Source: Mobula hypostoma (taxonomy: Eukaryota). From it: a stretch of DNA of 64,000 bases. The notes beneath the pieces were generated by a model that saw only the letters and a list, made by a program, of their open reading frames with translations, made no database searches and was not told the DNA's origin. Position 1 is the first letter of the stretch, and each line of letters begins with the position of its first letter. Position numbers and translations under genes: made by a program. The stretch is taken from positions 24,986,001-25,050,000 of the forward strand of contig NC_086108.1 of NCBI RefSeq assembly GCF_963921235.1. Direction: 5' to 3'. Positions 3,098-16,934 of the stretch are shown one piece after another.

Positions 3098-3325
3098 AAT
3101 AACAGGGATTAGTTCTCCTCATCCTTGCGTACATCCCCACAAGTATTTAGCACATTGTTCTCTGTAATTTCTGCCATCCCCAATAGGATCCCACCACTAA
3201 GCACATCTTTCCCTCCACCATTCCTTTTCCCCACACCTGCTTTCTGAAGGAACCACTCTCTGTGACTCCCTTGTCCACTTGTCCTTCTCCACTGATCTCC
3301 TTCCCGCCACTAATTCCTGCAAGTA
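3098..3325 (+). mobile_element. Decayed Penelope-like element internal fragment
   Basis: aacagggattagttctcctcatcctt...aggatcccaccactaagcacatctttccctcc resembles the reverse complement of PLE 12560-12760. Confidence 0.7.
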
Positions 3326-3860
3326 AACTAGAGTTGCAGGGGGATGGGAACCAAAGTGTCAGAACAGTTCGTGGAGAGGTTGTGGAGACAGATGTCAGTA
3401 AGACCTCAAAGTTAGGAACCAAATGATTAAGCATGGTGTGACTAGTGTCCTCAGCTGCCTATATTTCAATGCAAGAAGTATAGTAGGAAAGACAGATAAT
3501 AGTGCCGGAGTTGAGGTAGCTGGTTTACAAACAGAGGCAATGTGCAGTGAGAAGAGGCAGTTGATAGGGAAAAATTGCACTTAGCCAGATGAGTAGCAAC
3601 ATAAAAGGCAGTCAAAATCGAAAAAGGTGAATACAGGGCTGAAGCTGTTGAACTTGAATGCGTGCAGTAAACAGAATAAGGCAGATGAACTTGCAGCATA
3701 GTTGCAGTTAGGCAGGTATGAAATGGTAGGCAGCATTGAATCATGGCTGAAAGAAAGAACTTAATGTCCAAGGATACACATTGTATTGAAAGGACAGGCA
3801 GAAATGCGGGGGTTGGGGGGGGGGAGGAGGAAACGGTGTTGCTTTGTTGCTAAAAAAATG

Positions 3861-4347
3861 CCATAGAGGGAGTACAAAGAAGGTTCACCAGATTGATTCC
3901 TGGGATGGCAGGACTTTCATATGAAGAAAGATTGGATGAACTGGGCTTGTACTCGTTGGAATTTAGAAGATTGAGGGGGGATCTGATTGAAACGTATAAG
4001 ATCCTAAAGGGATTGGACATGCTAGATGCAGGAAGATTGTTCCCAATGTTGGGGAAGTCCAGAATGAGGGGTCACAGTTTGAGGATAGAGGGGAAGCCTT
4101 TTAGGACCGAGATTAGGAAAAACTTCTTCACACAGAGAGTGGTGAATCTGTGGAATTCTCTGCCACAGGAAACAGTTGAGGCCAGTTCATTGGCTATATT
4201 TAAGAGGGAGTTAGATATGGCCCTTGTGGCTACGGGGTTCAGGGAGTATGGAGGGAAGGCTGGGGTGGGGTTCTGAGTTGGATGATCAGCCATGATCATA
4301 ATAAATGGCGGTACTCCTGCACCTATTTTCTATGTTTCTATGTTTCT
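3861..4347 (+). mobile_element. 5'-truncated CR1 LINE (3' end)
   Basis: ORF 3893-4276 has the CR1 ORF2 C-terminus (LSYEERL..LGLYSLEFRRLRGDLIE, FFTQRVVNLWNSLP); 3' UTR and (TTTCTATG)n tail follow. Confidence 0.92.
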
Positions 4348-5116
4348 AAATCATTAGAAAGAGGTAACATAGGATCGGAGGGTGCTGAATCGTTGTGGAG
4401 AGAGCTAAGGAACTGCAAGGCCAAAATGACCCTGATGAGAGTTGTAATCAGACCCCCAAATAGTAGCAAGGATGTGGCCTACAAATTACAATGGGAGATA
4501 GAAACTGCATTGCAAAAGGGCAATGTTGCAATAGTCAACGGGAACTTCAATGTGCAGGTAGATTGGGAAAATCAGGATGATGATAGATTCCAGGAGCAAG
4601 AATTTCGAGAGTGCCTACGAGATGGATTTTTAGAGCAGCTCGTGGTTGAGCCTACTATGAGATCAGCTATTCTGGATTCTGGATTCTCCTTTGGATCAGG
4701 ACTACAGAGCGTTGTGGGAGCTGAATTGTGAAGGAAGGCGGTTTTTTTTAAAAACTTCTTCGAGTGCAAGAAGGGCGAGACTGCACAGGCGCGTGACGTC
4801 AGCAGGACCGCGCGGAGAGTTTAAAAAGGCGACCACCCTATACAGCTGGCAGCTGTTGGAGCGGGTAGCGGAGTGACCGGTAGCAGAGTGTAGGGCTTCG
4901 GCTTGAATGGGCTTCGGTGGTAAACGGCAAGAGGCGAGAGCGAAGCGCCAACTCTTTTTTCTCTCCCGCCCCCCCCCACCCCTTTCGCAAATCGGCCCGG
5001 ACAGACAGGAACAGCAGGGCTCTCACAGCTAGTGGTTTAAAAAGTTTGTCTGTTTGGCAAGGTAAGTGGGTGAGTAGACTTATTTTTCCTGTTTCATTCG
5101 TGTAGAATTAGGTAGC

Positions 5117-6052
5117 ATGCCTGCAGGGTTAGTGCTTTGTTCAGGGTGTCAGATGTGGGAATCCTGGGAGACCTCCAGCCTCTCTGATAGCCACATCTGC
5201 GCCAGATGCACTGAGGTGCAGCTCCTCAGAGACCGTGTTAGGGATCTGGAGCTGCAGCTTGATGACCTACTGCTTATTAGGGAAAGTGAAGAGGTGATAG
5301 ACAGAAGCTACAGGGAGGTAGTCATCCCTAGGCTACAGGGGTCAGAAAACTGGGTCACTGTCAAGAGAGGGAAGGGAAATGCCCAGATAGTGGAGAGCAC
5401 ACCTGTGGCTGTCCCCCTCAGCAACAAATATCTTGTTCTGGATGCTGTTGAGGGGGATGACCTGATGGGGGACGCCCACGGTGACCGGGTCTCTGGCACT
5501 GAGCCTGGCACTGATGTGCAGGAGAGAAGGAGGGTGAAGAGAAATGTGGTAGTCGTAGGGGATTCCATAGTCAGGGGAACAGACAGGAGATTCTGTGAGC
5601 CTGACAGAGATACCCGCATGGTGTGTTGCCTCCCAGGTGCCAGGGTACGGGATGTCTCGGATCGGGTCCTGAATATTCTGAAGGGGGAGGGTGAGCAGCC
5701 AGTTGTCTTGGTACATGTTGGTACCAATGACATAGATAGGACAAAGGAGGAGGTCCTGAAGAGAGATTTCCAGGAGTTAGGAAGGAAGCTGAGAAGCAGA
5801 ACCTCCAGGGTAGTAATCTCGGGATTGCTACCTGTGCCACGTGCTAGCGAGGGCAAGAGTAGTCGGATCAGGCAGATGAATGCCTGGCTGAGAGACTGGT
5901 GTAGGGGGCAGGGCTTCAGATTCTTGGATAATTGGGATCTCTTCTGGGGGAAGTATGACCTGTTCAAAAAGGACAGGTTACACCTGAACCTGAAGGGGAC
6001 CAATATCCTGGCAGGAAAGTTTAATAGAGCTGTTAGGGAGGGTTTAAACTAA
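5117..6052 (+). CDS. CR1 ORF1p: N-terminal Cys zinc finger/leucine zipper plus SGNH/GDSL esterase-like domain, intact 311 aa
   Basis: ATG start; CSGC...CARC followed by LRDRVRDLELQLDDL heptads; VVVVGDSIVR, HVGTND and DRLHLN SGNH blocks, as in CR1 ORF1. Confidence 0.93.
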   Translation: MPAGLVLCSGCQMWESWETSSLSDSHICARCTEVQLLRDRVRDLELQLDDLLLIRESEEVIDRSYREVVIPRLQGSENWVTVKRGKGNAQIVESTPVAVPLSNKYLVLDAVEGDDLMGDAHGDRVSGTEPGTDVQERRRVKRNVVVVGDSIVRGTDRRFCEPDRDTRMVCCLPGARVRDVSDRVLNILKGEGEQPVVLVHVGTNDIDRTKEEVLKRDFQELGRKLRSRTSRVVISGLLPVPRASEGKSSRIRQMNAWLRDWCRGQGFRFLDNWDLFWGKYDLFKKDRLHLNLKGTNILAGKFNRAVREGLN

Positions 6053-9025
6053 TTTGGCAGGGGGATGGGAACCGGAATGATAGAGCGGAGGAAGGGGAAA
6101 ACAGAAATAAATCTAAGATAGTGAGCAGTAAAGATGTCAGGAAAGACAGGCAGGTGATGGGGCAAATGTGTAGCCATTGGGATGAGTTGCCGTGCAATAA
6201 AGTTGCAGTGAAATCAAAGCAAAAAGTATCAAATACTGGTCTTAAGGTGTTGTACTTAAATGCACGCAGCATAAGAAATAAGGTGGATGATCTTGTTGTA
6301 CAGCTACAGATTGGCAGATATGATATTGTGGCCATCACTGAGACCTGGCTAAAGGATGCATGTCTCTGGGAACTGAACGTCCAAGGATACACGGTGTATC
6401 GGAAGGATAGGAAGGTAGGCAGAGGGGGAGGTGTGGCTTTATTGGTCAGAAATGATATTAAATCATTAGAAAGAGGTGATATAGGATCGGAAGGTGCAGA
6501 ATCTTTATGGGTTGAGCTAAGGAATAGCAGGGGTAAAAGGACCCTGATGGCAGTTATTTATAGGCCTCCAAAGAGCTGCAGGGATGTGGACTACAAATTA
6601 CAACTGGAAATAAAAAAGGCTTGTCAGAAGGGCAGTGTTATGATAATTGTGGGGGATTTTAACACGCGAGTAGATTGGAAAAATCAGGTTGGCACTGGAT
6701 CTCAAGAGAGAGAATTTGTAGAATGTCTGCGAGATGGCTTTTTAGAACAGCTTGTTGTTGAGCCCACTAGGGGATCGGCTGTACTGGATTGGGTATTGTG
6801 TAATGAACCGGAGGTGATTGGAGAGATTGAGGTGAAGGAACCCTTAGGAGGCAGTGATCATAACATGATTGAGTTCACTGTGAAATTAGAAAAAGAGAAG
6901 CCGAAATCTGATATGTCGGTGTTTCAGTGGAGTAAAGGAAACTACAGTGGCATGAGAGAGGAACTGGCCAAAGTTGACTGGAAAGAGACACTGGCGGGAA
7001 AGACGGCAGAGCAGCAGTGGCTGGAGTTTATGCGAGAAATGAGGAATGTGCAAGACAGGTATATTCCAAAAAAGAAGAAATTTTCGAGTGGAAAAAGGAT
7101 GCAACCGTGGTTGACAAGAGAAGTCAAAGCCAAAGTTAAAGCAAAGGAGAGCGCATACAAGGAAGCAAAAATTAGTGGGAAGACAGAGGATTGGGAAGTC
7201 TTTAAAATCTTACAAAAGGAAACCAAGAAGGTCATTAAGAGAGAAAAGATTAACTATGAAAGGAAACTAGCAAATAATATCAAAGAGGATACTAAAAGCT
7301 TTTTCAAGTATATAAAGAGTAAAAGACAGGTGAGAGTAGATATAGGACCGATAGAAAATGGTACTGGAGAAATTGTAATGGGAGATGAGGAGATGGCAGA
7401 GGAAGTGAACAAGTATTTTGCATCAGTCTTCACTGAGGAAGACAGCAGGATACCGGACACTCAAGGGTGGCAGGGAAGAGAAGTGTGCGCAGTCACAATT
7501 ACGACAGAGAAAGTACTCAGGAAGCTGAATAGGCTAAAGGTCGATAAATTTCCTGGACCAGATGGAATGTTCTGAAGGAAGTAGCTGTGGAGATTGCGGA
7601 GGCATTAGCGATGATCTTTCAAAAGTCGATAGATTCTGGCATGGTTCCGGAAGACTGGAAGATTGCAAATGTCACTCCGCTATTTAAGAAGGGGGCAAGG
7701 AAGCAAAAAGGAAATTATAGACCTGTTAGCTTGACGTCGGTGGTTGGGAAGTTGTTGGAGTCGATTCTCAAGGATGAGGTTACAGAGTACCTGGAGGCAT
7801 ATGACAAGATAGGCAGAACTCAGCATGGATTCCTTAAAGGAAAATCCTGCCTGACAAACCTATTACAATTTTTTGAGGAAATTACCAGTAGGCTAGACAA
7901 GGGAGATGTTGTGGATGTTGTATATTTGGATTTTCAGAAGGCCTTTGACAAGGTGCCACACATGAGGCTGCTTAACAAGATAAGAGCCCATGGAATTACA
8001 GGAAAGTTACATACGTGGATAGAGCGTTGGCTGATTGGCAGGAAACATAGAGCGGGAATAAAGGGATCCTATTCTGGTTGGCTGCCGGTTACCAATGGTG
8101 TTCCACAGGGATCAGTGTTGGGGCCGCTTCTTTTTACATTGTACATCAACGATTTGGATTATGGAATAGATGGCTTTGTGGCTAAGTTTGCTGATGATAC
8201 AAAGATAGGTGGAGGGGCCGGTAGTGCTGAGGAAACGGAGAGTCTGCAGAGAGACTTGGATAGATTGGAAGAATGGGCAGAGAAGTGGCAAATGAAGTAC
8301 AATGTTGGAAAGTGTATGGTTACGCACTTTGGCAGGAAAAATAAATGGCAGAGTATTATTTAAATGGGGAGAGAATTCAAAGTTCTGAGATGCAACGGGA
8401 CTTGGGAGTCCTCATACAGGATTCCCATAAAGTTAACCTTCAGGTTGAGTCGGTAGTGAAGAAGACGAATGCAATGTTGGCATTCATTTCTAGAGGAATA
8501 GAGTATAGGAGCAGGGATGTGATGTTGAGGCTCTATAAGGCACTGGTGAGACCTCACTTAGAGTACTGTGGGCAGTTTTGGTCTCCTTATTTAAGAAAGG
8601 ATGTGCTGACGTTGGAGAGGGTACAGAGAAGATTCACTAGAATGATTCCGGGAATGAGAGGGTTAACATATGAAGAACGTTTGTCCGCTCTTGGACTGTA
8701 TTCCTTGGAGTTTAGAAGAATGAGGGGAGACCTCATAGAAACATATCGAATGTTAAAAGGCATGGACAGAGTGGATGTGGCAAAGTTGTTTCCCATGATG
8801 GGGGAGTCTAGTACGAGAGGGCATGACTTCAGGATTGAAGAGTGCCCTTTCAGAACAGAAATGCGAAAAATTTTTTTTAGTCAGAGGGTGGTGAATCCAT
8901 GGAATTTGTTGCCACGGGCAGCAGTGGAGGCCAAGTCATTGGGTGTATTTAAGGCAGAGATTGACAGGTATCTGAGTAGCCAGGGCATCAAAGGTTATGG
9001 TGAGAAGGCAGGGCAGTGGGACTAA
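6037..9025 (+). pseudogene. CR1 ORF2 (APE endonuclease + reverse transcriptase) with two frameshifts
   Basis: YLNARSI, ITETWL, YRPP, GDFN, SDH (EN); NYRPVSLTS, LDFQKAFDKV, GVPQGSVLGP, FADD (RT). Lesions: ~10-bp deletion near 7569 (PDGM[HPRV]LKE) and a 1-nt frameshift near 8345. Confidence 0.93.
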
Positions 9026-9461
9026 ATAGGATAAAATGGATCAGCTCATGATAAAATGGCAGAGCAGACTTGATGGGCCGAATGGCCTACTTCTGCTCCT
9101 TTGTCTTATGGTCTTATGGGTGTTGTGTAATGAACCAGAACTGATTACAGAGCTTAAAGTAAAAAAAACCCTTATGGAAATTGATCATAATATGATCGAA
9201 TTCACCCTGAAATTTGAGAAGGAGAAGCTAAAGTCAGATGTACCAGTATTACAGTGGGGTAAAGGGAATTACAGAGGCATGAAAGAGCAGTTGGCCAGAA
9301 TCAATTGGAAAATAACATACACGGGGATGACGGTAGAGCAACAATGGCTAGAATTTCCGGAAGCAATTCAGATGACACAGGATAGATACATCCCAAAGAG
9401 GAAGAAGTATTCTAAAGGAAAGATGACACAACCATGGCTAACAAGAGAAGTCAAAACCAAA

Positions 9462-10217
9462 ATCCTTGGCAAATGGTAGGGCATTGAAGAATGCAGTAGA
9501 ACAGAGGGATCTAGGAATAATGGTGCCTAGTTCCCTGAAGGTGGAATCTCATGTGGATAGGGTGGTGAAGAAAGCTTTTGGTATGTTGACCTTTATAAAT
9601 CAGAGCATTGAGTATAGGAATTGGGATGTAATGTTGAAATTGTACAAGGCATTGGTAAGGCCAAATTTGGAGTATTGTGTACAGTTCTGGTCACCGAATT
9701 ATAGGAAAGATGTCAACAAAATAGAGAGAGTACAGAGAAGATTTACTAGAACGTTACCTGGGTTTCATCACCTAAGTTACAGAGAAAGGTTGAACAAGTT
9801 GAGTCTTTATTCCTTGGAGCATAGAAGGTTAAGGGGGGACTTGATAGAGGTATTTTAAATTATGAGGGAGATTGATGGAGTTGATGTGGATAGGTTTTTT
9901 TCCATTGAGAGTGGGGGAGATTCAAACAAGAGGACATGAGTTGAGACTTAAAGGGCAAAAGTTTAGGGGTAACATGAGGGGGAACTTCTTTACTCAGAGA
10001 GTGGTAGCTGTGTGGAATGAACTTCCAGCAGAAGTGGTTGAGGCAGGTTCTATGTTGTCATTTAAAGTTAAATTGGATAGATATATGGACATGAAAGGAA
10101 TGGAGGGTTATGGGCTGAGTGCAGGTCAGTGGGACTAGGTGAGAGTAAGAGTTCGGCACGGACTAGAAGGGCCGAGATGGCCTGTTTCTGTGCTGTAATT
10201 GTTATATGGTTATAATA
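9462..10217 (+). mobile_element. 5'-truncated CR1 LINE (3' end)
   Basis: ORFs 9466-9858 and 9872-10138 are the CR1 ORF2 C-terminus (LYKALVRPNLEYCVQFWSP); tail ttgttatatggttata. Confidence 0.9.
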
Positions 10218-11426
10218 TAAAAGGCAAGGAGATGGCAGAAAATAGAGGAAAAATTAATGAGAAGTTAAAGGTTTGGGAAGCTTCTAAAAGCCAACAGAAG
10301 ACAACTAAAAAAATCATTTAGGTTCAGATGGAATATGAAAGTAAGCTAGCCAATAATATTAATGAGAATACCAAAAGTTTCTTCAGATATATAAAGTGTA
10401 AAAGAGAGGCGAGAGTAGATATCAGACTGCTGGAAAACAATGCTGTAAAGATAGCAATGGGGGATGATGAAATGGGATTCAAACTGAACAAGTATCTTAA
10501 GTCAAGCTTCACTGTGGAAGACACTAGCAATATGGTAGATCCAGGTGTCAGGAGTCATGAAGTGTGTGAAGTTACAGAACGAGAGAGATGGTTCTTGGGA
10601 AACTGAAAGGTCTGAAGGTAGATAAGTCACCTGGACAAGATGGTGTACATCCCAAGGTTCTGAATGAGGTAGCCGAAGAGATTATGGAGGCATCAGTAAT
10701 GATCTTTCAAGAATTACTGGATTCTGAAATGGTTTCAGATGACTGGAAAATTGCACATATTACTCCACTCTGCAAGAGGGAGAGGCAGAAAAAAGGAAAC
10801 TATAGGCCAGTTAGTCTGACCTCAGTGGTTGGGAAGGTGTTGCAGTTGATTATTAAGGATGAAGTCTCAGGGTACTTGGAGACACATGATATAATAGGCC
10901 ATAGAGAGCATGGCTTCTTCAAGGGAAAATATTTCCTGACAAATCTGTTGGATTTTTTTGCAGAAATTACAAGCAGGATTGACAAAGAAGAATCAGTTGA
11001 TGTTGTACACTTGGATTTTCAGAAGGTCTGTGACAAGATGCCACATGAGGCTGCTTAGACAACAAGACTATATGACACAGTTGCAGAATTAGGCATTTCA
11101 GCCCATCGACTCTTCTCTGACATTCCAGCATGGCTGATCCTGGTTGCCATTCAACCCCATACACCTGCCTTCTCGCCATATCCTTTGATGCCCTGACCGA
11201 TCAGGAAACTTATCAACTTCCACCTTAAATATACCCACGGACTTGGCCTCCACTGCGAACTGTGGCAGTGCATTCCACAGATTTACTACTCTCCGGCTAA
11301 AATAAATTCCTCCTTACTTCTGTTCTAAAGGGTCACCCCTAAATTTTGAGGCTGTGCCCTCTATTCCTGGATACCCTCACCATAGTAAACATCTTCTCCA
11401 TATCCATCCTATCTAATCCTTTCAAC

Positions 11427-11751: not shown

Positions 11752-14038
11752 AAAATAATCTGCGGATGCTGGGGTCAAAGCAACACTCACAACACGCTGG
11801 AGGAACTCAGCAGGTCAGGCAGCATCAGTGGAAAAGATCGTTCGACGTTTTGGGCCAGAACCCTTCGTCAGGACTGTAGGGGGAAGGGGGCAGAGGCCCT
11901 ATAAAGAAGGTGGGGGGAGGGTGGGAAGGAGAAGGCTGGTAGGTTCCAAGAGAAAAACCAGTAAGGGGAAAGATAAAGGGGTTGGTGAAGGGGAGGCAGG
12001 GAGGTGATAGGCAGGAAAGGTGAAGAAAGAATAGGGGAAAACACAATGGGTAGTAGAAGGAGGCGGAACCAAGAGGGAGGACGTAGGCAGCTGGGGGATA
12101 GGGCAGAGTGACATAGGGATAGGGGAAGGGAGGGAATTACCAGAAGTTGGAGAATTCTATGTTCATACCAAGGGGCTGGAGACTACCTAGACGGTATATG
12201 AGGTGTTGCTCCTCCAACCTGAGTTTAGCCTCATCATGGCAGGAGAGGAGGCCATGTATGGACATATCTGAATGGGAATGGGAAGCAGAGTTGAAGTGGG
12301 TGGCCACTGGGAGATCCTGTCTGTTTTGGTGCACGGAGCGGAGGTGCTCGACGAAGCGGTCCCCCAATCTGCGTCAGGTTTCACCAATGTAGAGGAGGCC
12401 ACACCGGGAGCACCGGATGCAATAGATGACCCCAACAAACTCACAAGTGAAGTGTTGCCTCACTTGGAAGTACTGTTTGGGACCTTGAATGGTGGCAAGA
12501 GAGGAGGTGTAGGGATAGGTGTAGCACTTGCGCTTACAGGGATAAGTGACAGGTGGGAGGTCTGTGGGGAGGGACGTGTGGACCAGCGAGTCGCAGAGGG
12601 ACCGATCCCTGTGGAAGGCAGAGAGGGATGGAGAGGGAAAGATGTGCTTAGTGGTGGGGTCCTGTTGAAGGTGGCGGAAGTTACGGAGGATAATGTGTTG
12701 GATCCGGAGACTAGTGGGGTGGTAGGTGAGGACAAGGGGAACTCTGTCCCTGTTGTGGTGGCGGGAGGATGGGGTGAGAGCCAAAGTGTGGGAAATGGAG
12801 GAGATATGGGTGAGGGCATCATTGATGACAGCAGAAGGGAAACCATGATCCTTAAAGAAAGAGGACATTTGAGATGTCCTGGAATGGAAAACCTCATCCT
12901 TGGAGCAGATGCGGCGGAGACGGAGGAACTAGGAATAGGGAATGGCATTTGTGCATGTGGCAGGGTGGGAAGAGGTATAGTCGAGGTAGTTATGAGAGTC
13001 AGTGGGCTTGTAGAAGATGTCAGTGGACAGTCTGTCTCCAGAGATGGAGACCGAGAGATCGAGAAAGGGGAGAGAAGTGTCCGAGACAGACCAAGTCAAT
13101 TTGAGGGCTGGGTGGAAGTTAGAAGTAAAGTTGATGAAATTGACGAGCTCAGCATGGGTGCAGGAAGCAGCACCAATGTAGTCGTCAATGTACCGAAGGA
13201 AAAGTTGGGGAGCAGTACCAGAATAGGTTTGGAGCACAGACTGTTCCACATAACCAACGAAGAGGCAGGCATAGCTAGGGGCCATGCGAGTTCCCATAGC
13301 TAGACCCTTGGTCTGAAGAAAGTGGGAAGAGCCAAAAGAGAAGTTATTGAGTGTGAGAACCAGTTCCGCCAACCGGAGGAAGGTAGTGGTGGTGGGGAAC
13401 TGGTGAGGTCTATTATCTAGAATGTAGCGGAGGGCTTTGACGCCCTCTTGATGGGGAGTGTAGGGGTACAGGGATTGGACATCCATTGTGAAAATGAAGC
13501 GGTTGGGACCGGGGAACTGGAAGTTATTGAAGAGGTGGAGGGCATGGGATGTATCCTGGATGTAGGTGGGGAGGGACTGAACTATGGGTGACAAAATGGA
13601 GTCCAGGTAGGCAGATACAAGTTTGGTGGGACAGGAGCAGGCAGAAACCATGGGTCTGCCAGGACAGTCAGGCTTGTGGATCTTGGGGAGGAGGTAAAAC
13701 CGAGCAGCATGGGGTATGGGAATTATGAGCTTAGTGGCTGAGGATGGAAGGTCTCTGGAGTTGATATGGGGGGTGATGGTACGGGAGACAATGGTTTGAT
13801 GTTTTTTGGTGGGGTCCTGTTCCAGGGGTAAGTAAGAGGAGGTGTCAGAGAGCTACCATTTGGCCTCAGTGAGGTAGAGGTCCATCCGCCAGACTACTAC
13901 AGCACCACCTTTGTCAGTGGGTTTGATGGTGAGGTTGCGATTAATGCGGAGAGAGTGGAGGGCAGTGCGTTCAGAGGGAGTGAGGTTGGAACAGGAGAGA
14001 GGAGTGGTGAAGTTGAGACGGTTGATGTCTCAGCGACA
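11752..14038 (-). mobile_element. 5'-truncated Penelope-like retroelement (Neptune-like)
   Basis: RT plus GIY-YIG ORF, pyrimidine-rich 3' region, hammerhead-like motif at 11840-11876; 15-bp duplication tcatatgttaaacac at 11737-11751 and 14039-14053. Confidence 0.93.
12137..14030 (-). pseudogene. PLE polyprotein remnant: RT, Cys linker, GIY-YIG endonuclease
   Basis: FTMDVQSLY, QTKGLAMGTRMAPSYA, FLRYIDD, FLDL, YKPTD (12929-13651); YPCKRKCY and VIYCIRCSRCGLLYIGET (12374-12868); RFVEH, VATHFN, RLEEQHLIYRLGSLQPLGMN (12137-12367). Broken by a frameshift and stops. Confidence 0.9.
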
Positions 14039-16640: not shown

Positions 16641-16934
16641 TTAGTGATGCCCACAACGTCATACCAACCACTTTCTAATTGCACTTCCAGCTCGTCCACC
16701 TTATTCCAAATGCTATGCACATTTAAATACAGCACCTTCAATCCTGCATTCTTCACCATTTTGAATTTTGTCTCTGTGGTACAATTTAACCCTTTTGCTC
16801 TGTCTGCATTTGTACGCAATCATTGGTTCGTCTTTCCTTACATTCATGCTACATCCATCATCTACCTGTAAACCTGCTGGCTCATCCTCAGCTCTACTAT
16901 ACTGGTTCCCATCTCCCTGCAATATTAGATTTTT

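Follow-up and report, generated by a model that had tools for sequence, protein, structure and literature searches.

A candidate -1 ribosomal frameshift site at the ORF1-ORF2 junction of vertebrate CR1 elements

In a 64,000-nucleotide (nt) stretch of the Mobula hypostoma genome (contig NC_086108.1, positions 24,986,001 to 25,050,000; the whole stretch is called the window below), a young CR1 element, i.e. a long interspersed element (LINE) with two open reading frames (ORFs), carries a slippery heptamer in phase at the end of ORF1, and the ORF2 frame continues at -1. The conservation of this arrangement makes it likely that vertebrate CR1 elements produce ORF2 by programmed -1 frameshifting, which would give an ORF1-ORF2 fusion protein; we put the probability of this reading at about three in four. 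An earlier note on this DNA had proposed such a fusion for one CR1 lineage. At the sequence level the proposal is supported, and the interpretation has become broader, in that the signal spans jawed vertebrates rather than a single lineage. The parts of the element are as follows.

4685..9119, + strand: near full-length young CR1 LINE, 95.9% identical over 4452 nt to another copy
5117..6052, + strand: ORF1, 311 amino acids; cysteine-rich N-terminal part, then SGNH/GDSL esterase; ends in Leu-Asn-stop (L-N-stop)
6043..6049, + strand: slippery heptamer T_TTA_AAC in X_XXY_YYZ phase, within the ORF1 end GGT TTA AAC TAA (6041-6052)
6050..6052, + strand: ORF1 stop codon, adjoining the heptamer; this genome uses TAA or TAG, and one lizard consensus has TGA
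6060..6070, + strand: G-rich block GGGGGNNGGGA (G-block), a candidate stimulator that is not a hairpin; its first G is the 11th base past the heptamer
6037..7575, + strand: 5' part of ORF2 in the -1 frame; variable leader, then apurinic/apyrimidinic (AP)-type endonuclease
6157..6159, + strand: earliest ATG in the ORF2 frame of this subfamily; other subfamilies do not keep its position
7548..9025, + strand: rest of ORF2 in two more frames, with reverse transcriptase (RT; PF00078, E 1.9e-33) and C-terminal part

The layout given in the earlier note holds in all its coordinates. ORF1 closes with the in-phase heptamer and its stop; the ORF2 frame opens at -1 behind the TAG at 6034-6036, overlaps ORF1 by 16 nt and runs without a stop from 6037 to 7575; its first ATG is reached at 6157, preceded by three out-of-frame ATGs (6065, 6077, 6134). 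The G-rich sequence GCAGGGGGATGGGAACC starts 8 nt past the heptamer at 6057, with the conserved core GGGGG of the G-block at 6060. The domain content is that of a CR1 element, namely an SGNH esterase in ORF1 (PF13472, E 4.6e-14 in a domain search) and an AP endonuclease together with RT in ORF2, where the motif LNARS begins at 6256 and the Pfam match of the endonuclease covers about 6289-6861 (PF03372, E 2.2e-13). The closest relatives of this ORF1 come from rays and sharks, and the junction resembles published CR1 consensus rows from the same groups; a DNA search of the 3.5-Gb genome returned 30 close relatives of the junction at 99% identity. The window copy itself is broken, which is why its -1 frame ends at 7575: ORF2 is split into three pieces in three frames (6037-7575, 7548-8363, 8345-9025), so no whole ORF2 could be made from it.

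TTTAAAC alone is a frequent word, with 20 occurrences on both strands of the window, and therefore the case rests on conservation. The heptamer combined with the G-block has a single match in the window, where none is expected from 100 window shuffles, and across the genome the whole motif, in which 7 nt separate the stop from the G-block, is matched 17,050 times, versus once for the reversed control. Junctions were gathered from this genome by DNA, pattern and protein searches and from fetched regions, and were located by an ORF1 profile that ends before the last residues together with an endonuclease match. Most came from ORF1 protein searches, some from the G-block pattern and none from the heptamer, while twenty random 10-kb regions yielded only three. 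The resulting 203 unique junctions comprise 184 in ten groups of 4-56 copies, referred to here as subfamilies, and 19 singletons or pairs that were excluded from the majority analysis.

All ten subfamily majority sequences contain T_TTA_AAC_TAR with its wobble bases, although their ORF1 tails are just 53-94% identical. The codon in front of TTA specifies D, T, G, A, V or C, and its third base is always T. Such constancy is rare further upstream: over 98 codons there are 25 other invariant degenerate residues, two of which are written with a single codon, none of nine Leu columns keeps one codon, and 13 of 97 columns have an invariant third base. Since in seven of nine clusters the -1 frame is closed by a stop that lies 3-6 codons upstream of the heptamer, the residues F-K-L cannot be maintained as part of a protein made from upstream. 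TTTAAA is also present in 2,427 of the 2,974 genomic copies anchored on one G-block variant.

Behind the ORF1 stop, the distances to the first endonuclease motif in the ten subfamilies are 194, 248, 206, 140, 320, 170, 191, 137, 191 and 200 nt, all of them 2 mod 3. The stops behind the heptamer and the loss of phase that the earlier note had named as refuting were not encountered: from heptamer to endonuclease the -1 frame has 0 stops in 659 leader codons, compared with 50/649 in frame 0 and 80/649 in frame +1, and the phase is kept in 10/10 subfamilies despite leaders of 137-320 nt. In six subfamilies the first in-frame Met stands at leader codon 3, 18, 29, 38, 52 or 53. The remaining four reach it only past two endonuclease motifs, the first one and S/T-E-T-W, whose Glu is a metal ligand (codons 103, 104, 215, and none before the frame is lost). 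One of these subfamilies with an AUG-less leader is represented by 35 sampled copies of 97% identity with the frame open for 342 codons. A fixed heptamer followed by a -1 continuation that often lacks a start codon before the enzyme makes it likely that ribosomes slip by -1.

Some CR1 subfamilies look recombinant (loci L172, L173, L194, L199, L200, L271, L274, L276 and L278). They appear to swap ORF1 and ORF2 modules inside the leader with the -1 frame retained, and in one of them a further Q-G-D-G-N (G-block) copy lies 18 codons downstream, with the leader of another subfamily behind it.

The signal is found in other vertebrates as well. Among 120 listed ORF1 homologues, 79 of the 84 that reach the end of ORF1 terminate with L-N; these come from rays, sharks, bony fish, frogs, turtles and lizards, with the same ending in a crane protein. 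In the supplement of PMC13343379, where consensus entries were covered up to 400 nt and host groups were read from row codes, a search biased by its own term (TTTAAACTA) gave 23 matches, 17 of which were judged by eye to be ORF1 ends; they belong to alligator, crocodile, bowfin, frog, chimaera, coelacanth, sharks, rays and one teleost. Anchoring on the G-block and on esterase codons, with anchors chosen partly from consensus rows seen beforehand, located 15 fully visible published junctions, and the heptamer is present in 14 of them, one with TGA. The G-block occurs in crocodilian, lizard, frog and most cartilaginous-fish consensus rows. In some fish and shark consensus sequences it is weak or missing. 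The supplement of PMC4316615 was set aside, as it holds 3' parts of CR1 and its TTTAAACTA matches are not junctions. A search of viral contigs found no relative.

Within the Mobula genome, nine of the eleven positions of the G-block are invariant in 10/10 subfamilies, including wobble sites of four-fold degenerate Gly codons. The spacing of the block from the heptamer is fixed as well, though the leader beyond varies in length, because only 8 genomic matches are one codon shorter and 111 one codon longer, against the 17,050 with the standard distance; most of the longer ones listed represent expansions of the G-run. An unstructured motif thus stands at a constant distance of about 11 nt on the 3' side, in this genome if not in every vertebrate consensus.

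In another explanation, ORF2 is translated from a spliced or subgenomic RNA, in which CUAAU would be the branch point and UUUG(G)CAG/G the acceptor, or TTTAAA would act as a TATA- or poly(A)-like signal. CAG/G does precede the G-block in 8/10 subfamilies, and two strong donor-like motifs (AG/GTAAGT, GG/GTGAGT) are located at about 5060-5075 on the + strand, in the CR1 5' untranslated region (UTR) just before ORF1. We regard this explanation as very improbable, as two subfamilies and many among the first 100 genomic matches have no CAG, a pyrimidine tract is absent, the branch point would lie about 8 nt from the acceptor, the search with one donor region gave 0 spliced retrocopies, and four subfamilies would still be left without an AUG. 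Donor-like motifs similar to those at 5060-5075 were also seen in two published shark CR1 5' UTRs.

Equally small is the chance that the block is kept for RNA packaging, for binding of the ORF1 protein (ORF1p), for template switching or as protein sequence, with ORF2 made in some other way. Apparent module swaps in the leader, once at the second G-block copy, would fit such a role, as would the 5 of 50 G-block-anchored copies that lose similarity 40 nt or less upstream of the ORF1 stop (L045, L056, L057, L254, L258). It would, however, leave unexplained the lock between the heptamer and the phase of two frames, the stop-free -1 leader and the missing AUG. In addition, four-fold Gly positions have an invariant G, and the spacer tolerates no one-codon insertions or deletions.

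Several observations weigh against programmed frameshifting. The ten subfamilies are related, so that 10/10 does not represent ten independent trials. The residue before the final L is E, Q, K, M or W in 2 of 80 proteins, with 3 of 80 at three nearby positions, which makes this a weak test. One gecko consensus, a low-confidence sequence, has no heptamer, and the rows with a weak or absent G-block are those of bowfin, a teleost and one shark. Furthermore, the 80-nt windows on the 3' side fold no better than shuffled sequences (z +2.1 to -1.8) and contain no hairpin. A stem-loop or pseudoknot 5-9 nt downstream was not found; pseudoknots were not modelled, but the purine-rich region offers no first stem. 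By these fold tests, the G-block forms neither a hairpin of the coronavirus type nor a pseudoknot stem. A long-range pairing partner for it had no common position in 17 long copies (20 regions were fetched and four without a matching junction dropped). A heptamer that lacks a stimulator may shift little. A G-quadruplex is not claimed; it was predicted in 7/10 subfamilies and is strong in only two related ones.

The main rival explanation draws on the codons directly behind the ORF1 stop and on the LINEs studied so far. By termination-reinitiation, ribosomes would restart a few bases past the stop at a -1 AUG or near-cognate codon, with TTTAAAC and the G-block holding the 40S subunit. An AUG or near-cognate codon does exist at leader codons 4-6 in 9/10 subfamilies, one having the stop-start UAAUG, three AUU or AUA there, and five UUG at codon 5 or 6. 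SART1 and L1 use reinitiation (PMC5972666), in SART1 coupled through UAAUG (PMC5972666) and in L1 by an unconventional process (PMC5972666; PMC3708506) that has been described as independent of the AUG present (PMC5009743). An open -1 leader would be maintained under reinitiation as well. An X_XXY_YYZ heptamer that is exactly in phase and has invariant wobble bases is, however, not predicted by it, and the junction varies just where the start codon would have to be: an AUG overlapping or adjoining the ORF1 stop is not conserved, being UAAUG in 1/10 subfamilies with near-cognates in eight more, and two alligator consensus sequences, inspected by eye, have no candidate at codons 4-6. The UGGGA of motif 1 of a termination upstream ribosome-binding site (TURBS) occurs at -96/-117 in 9/10 subfamilies, where it falls within W-D codons, and is absent in one; in influenza B the TURBS is found no more than about 45 nt away (PMC5972666). 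No downstream structure was seen. Altogether, we consider reinitiation unlikely, though clearly less so than the two explanations above.

For programmed frameshifting, the junction provides an in-phase heptamer, an open -1 ORF and synonymous-site conservation, and a structured stimulator was not found; the site would therefore resemble gag-pol and ORF1a-1b in its working without belonging to the pseudoknot type. A minority of ribosomes would slip by -1 on U_UUA_AAC, the tRNA-Leu and tRNA-Asn on UUA and AAC re-pairing with UUU and AAA, and decoding would resume at CUA (6049-6051). The product would be an esterase-endonuclease-RT fusion of about 1,300 residues and a minor species, while most ribosomes would terminate at 6050 and release free ORF1p. 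With less confidence, the pause might come from the adjacent stop together with the unstructured G-block, which might serve as a protein-binding site, similar to the C-rich motif in the virus of porcine reproductive and respiratory syndrome (PRRSV), or as a weak G-quadruplex. Such a fusion would keep the ORF2:ORF1 ratio low and take the RT along into ORF1p assemblies, comparable to Gag-Pol. For mammalian ribosomes, U_UUA_AAC is listed as one of the heptamers most prone to shifting (PMC5009743). The ZfL2-1 esterase is able to bind membranes and has been compared to Gag (PMC3905857), which is the reason to suppose that a fusion would recruit the RT to ORF1p assemblies.

The likeness to -1 frameshifting at U_UUA_AAC in retroviral gag-pol and nidovirus ORF1a/1b consists in an in-phase X_XXY_YYZ site at the end of an upstream structural ORF and a polymerase ORF in the -1 frame that has no conserved start of its own (PMC5009743). 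In contrast, CR1 has no detected 3' stem-loop or pseudoknot, it is an element without long terminal repeats (non-LTR), and its ORF1 is an esterase and not Gag. The nearest parallel to the G-block is found in PRRSV, whose site has a different heptamer and yields -2 and -1 products. There, a short, unstructured, homopolymer-rich motif stands at an almost identical fixed 3' distance: the nsp2 frameshift is trans-activated by nsp1beta and a poly(C)-binding protein (PCBP) at CCCANCUCC, 11 nt 3' of the shift site (PMC5009743). The CR1 motif differs in being G-rich, and any protein that binds it is so far putative.

The idea that LINEs may use frameshifting has been raised before, because the Dictyostelium elements TRE5-A and TRE3-A have been stated to need a -1 frameshift for ORF2 (PMC5911963). 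Like CR1 they are non-LTR elements of the AP-endonuclease (APE) type, but they belong to another clade and kingdom and have no esterase ORF1. SART1 and mammalian L1 share with CR1 a bicistronic RNA and low-level translation of ORF2 (PMC5972666; PMC5009743); they differ in making free ORF2 protein, in L1 across a 63-nt spacer, whereas CR1 has an overlap with a conserved heptamer. The canonical vertebrate CR1 has the same esterase ORF1 and APE-RT ORF2 (PMC13343379; ZfL2-1 in PMC3905857). The accessible parts of these two papers mention neither a frameshift nor an overlap, and no statement on CR1 frameshifting was found in those of PMC13343379, PMC4120745, PMC2734521, PMC3708506 and PMC11835228, nor any mention of CR1 in the first 300,000 characters of the frameshifting review PMC5009743. 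Our search of the open literature found no description of frameshifting for CR1; the original CR1 sequence papers lie outside its coverage and may mention the overlap.

How LINE ORF2 is translated is a long-standing question, and the worked cases, L1 and SART1, point to reinitiation without a fusion. If CR1 frameshifts, its real RT protein would be an esterase-endonuclease-RT fusion, annotated ORF2 starts would be wrong, and retrotransposition assays would need the overlap intact. In most vertebrates, CR1 dominates among the retrotransposon groups (PMC13343379), and with 17,050 intact motifs in this genome the cassette would be among the most abundant frameshift cassettes of vertebrate genomes. 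The G-block may then be a natural G-tract stimulator; G-quadruplex stimulators of frameshifting were anticipated but unknown according to a 2016 review (PMC5009743).

More distant LINEs with an esterase ORF1 suggest a second route to the same fusion. A metagenome scan produced 80 distant loci (L091-L170) of 20-42% identity and no close vertebrate-type CR1. In 25 of the 35 loci having both domains, the endonuclease lies in frame behind a single stop (e.g. L092, L100, L104, L120). Three of these were dropped for an unclear stop assignment; the leaders of the remaining 22 contain 2 stops in 1,839 codons versus 77 and 120 in the other frames. The stop context is UGA-CUA in 11, UGA-CCA in four and UAG-GAU in one. 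UGA-CUA and UAG-GAU are listed readthrough types (PMC13517186). An in-phase heptamer is found in none of the 22. A Met precedes the endonuclease in 19 of them, hence readthrough is suggested and not shown. To this extent, the distant elements appear to be laid out for fusion by readthrough. Among longer fused proteins, the search returned 27 gene-model chimeras and no clear natural single-ORF element.

Tentatively, it might be possible that esterase-ORF1 LINEs as a group make a Gag-Pol-like fusion by recoding. The -1 cassette of jawed vertebrates would then predate the split of sharks and tetrapods and be stimulated not by RNA structure but, at the G-block, by a protein, either ORF1p or a G-tract-binding protein of the host, making feedback control possible, and the distant relatives would use readthrough at UGA-CUA or UAG-GAU. 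This wider scheme is somewhat more doubtful than not.

The window contains two other CR1 copies with a recognizable junction.

3322..3352, + strand: other CR1 copy, which seems to break off at the junction; intact G-block, AGTAAAC at the heptamer site (3322-3328)
16904..16934, - strand: other CR1 copy; G-block with one change, AAAAATC at the heptamer site (16934-16928)

The earlier note had seen the pattern recur in both. This is correct for the G-block (3336-3352 on the + strand, 16904-16920 on the - strand) and not for the heptamer, so the two copies lend the latter no support; its observation is thus partly confirmed, right in the core and not in the two extra copies. Two published consensus sequences start at the heptamer, which together with the copies at 3322 and 16934 and the 5 of 50 G-block-anchored copies mentioned above possibly marks a hotspot of 5' truncation.

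The young CR1 is inserted in the endonuclease region of an older CR1, splitting this host element into 4300-4684 and 9120-9480, and other nested LINE pieces are located at 3320-4330 and 9030-11060. A tandem array with a unit of about 21 nt and several open frames occupies 2690-2940. On the - strand, RT-like frames at 12272-13852 resemble, as judged by eye, a Penelope-type element. Finally, one protein filed as an SGNH hydrolase of Pseudomonas aeruginosa (P0021) is a CR1 ORF1 59% identical to that of the window and probably derives from a contaminant contig.

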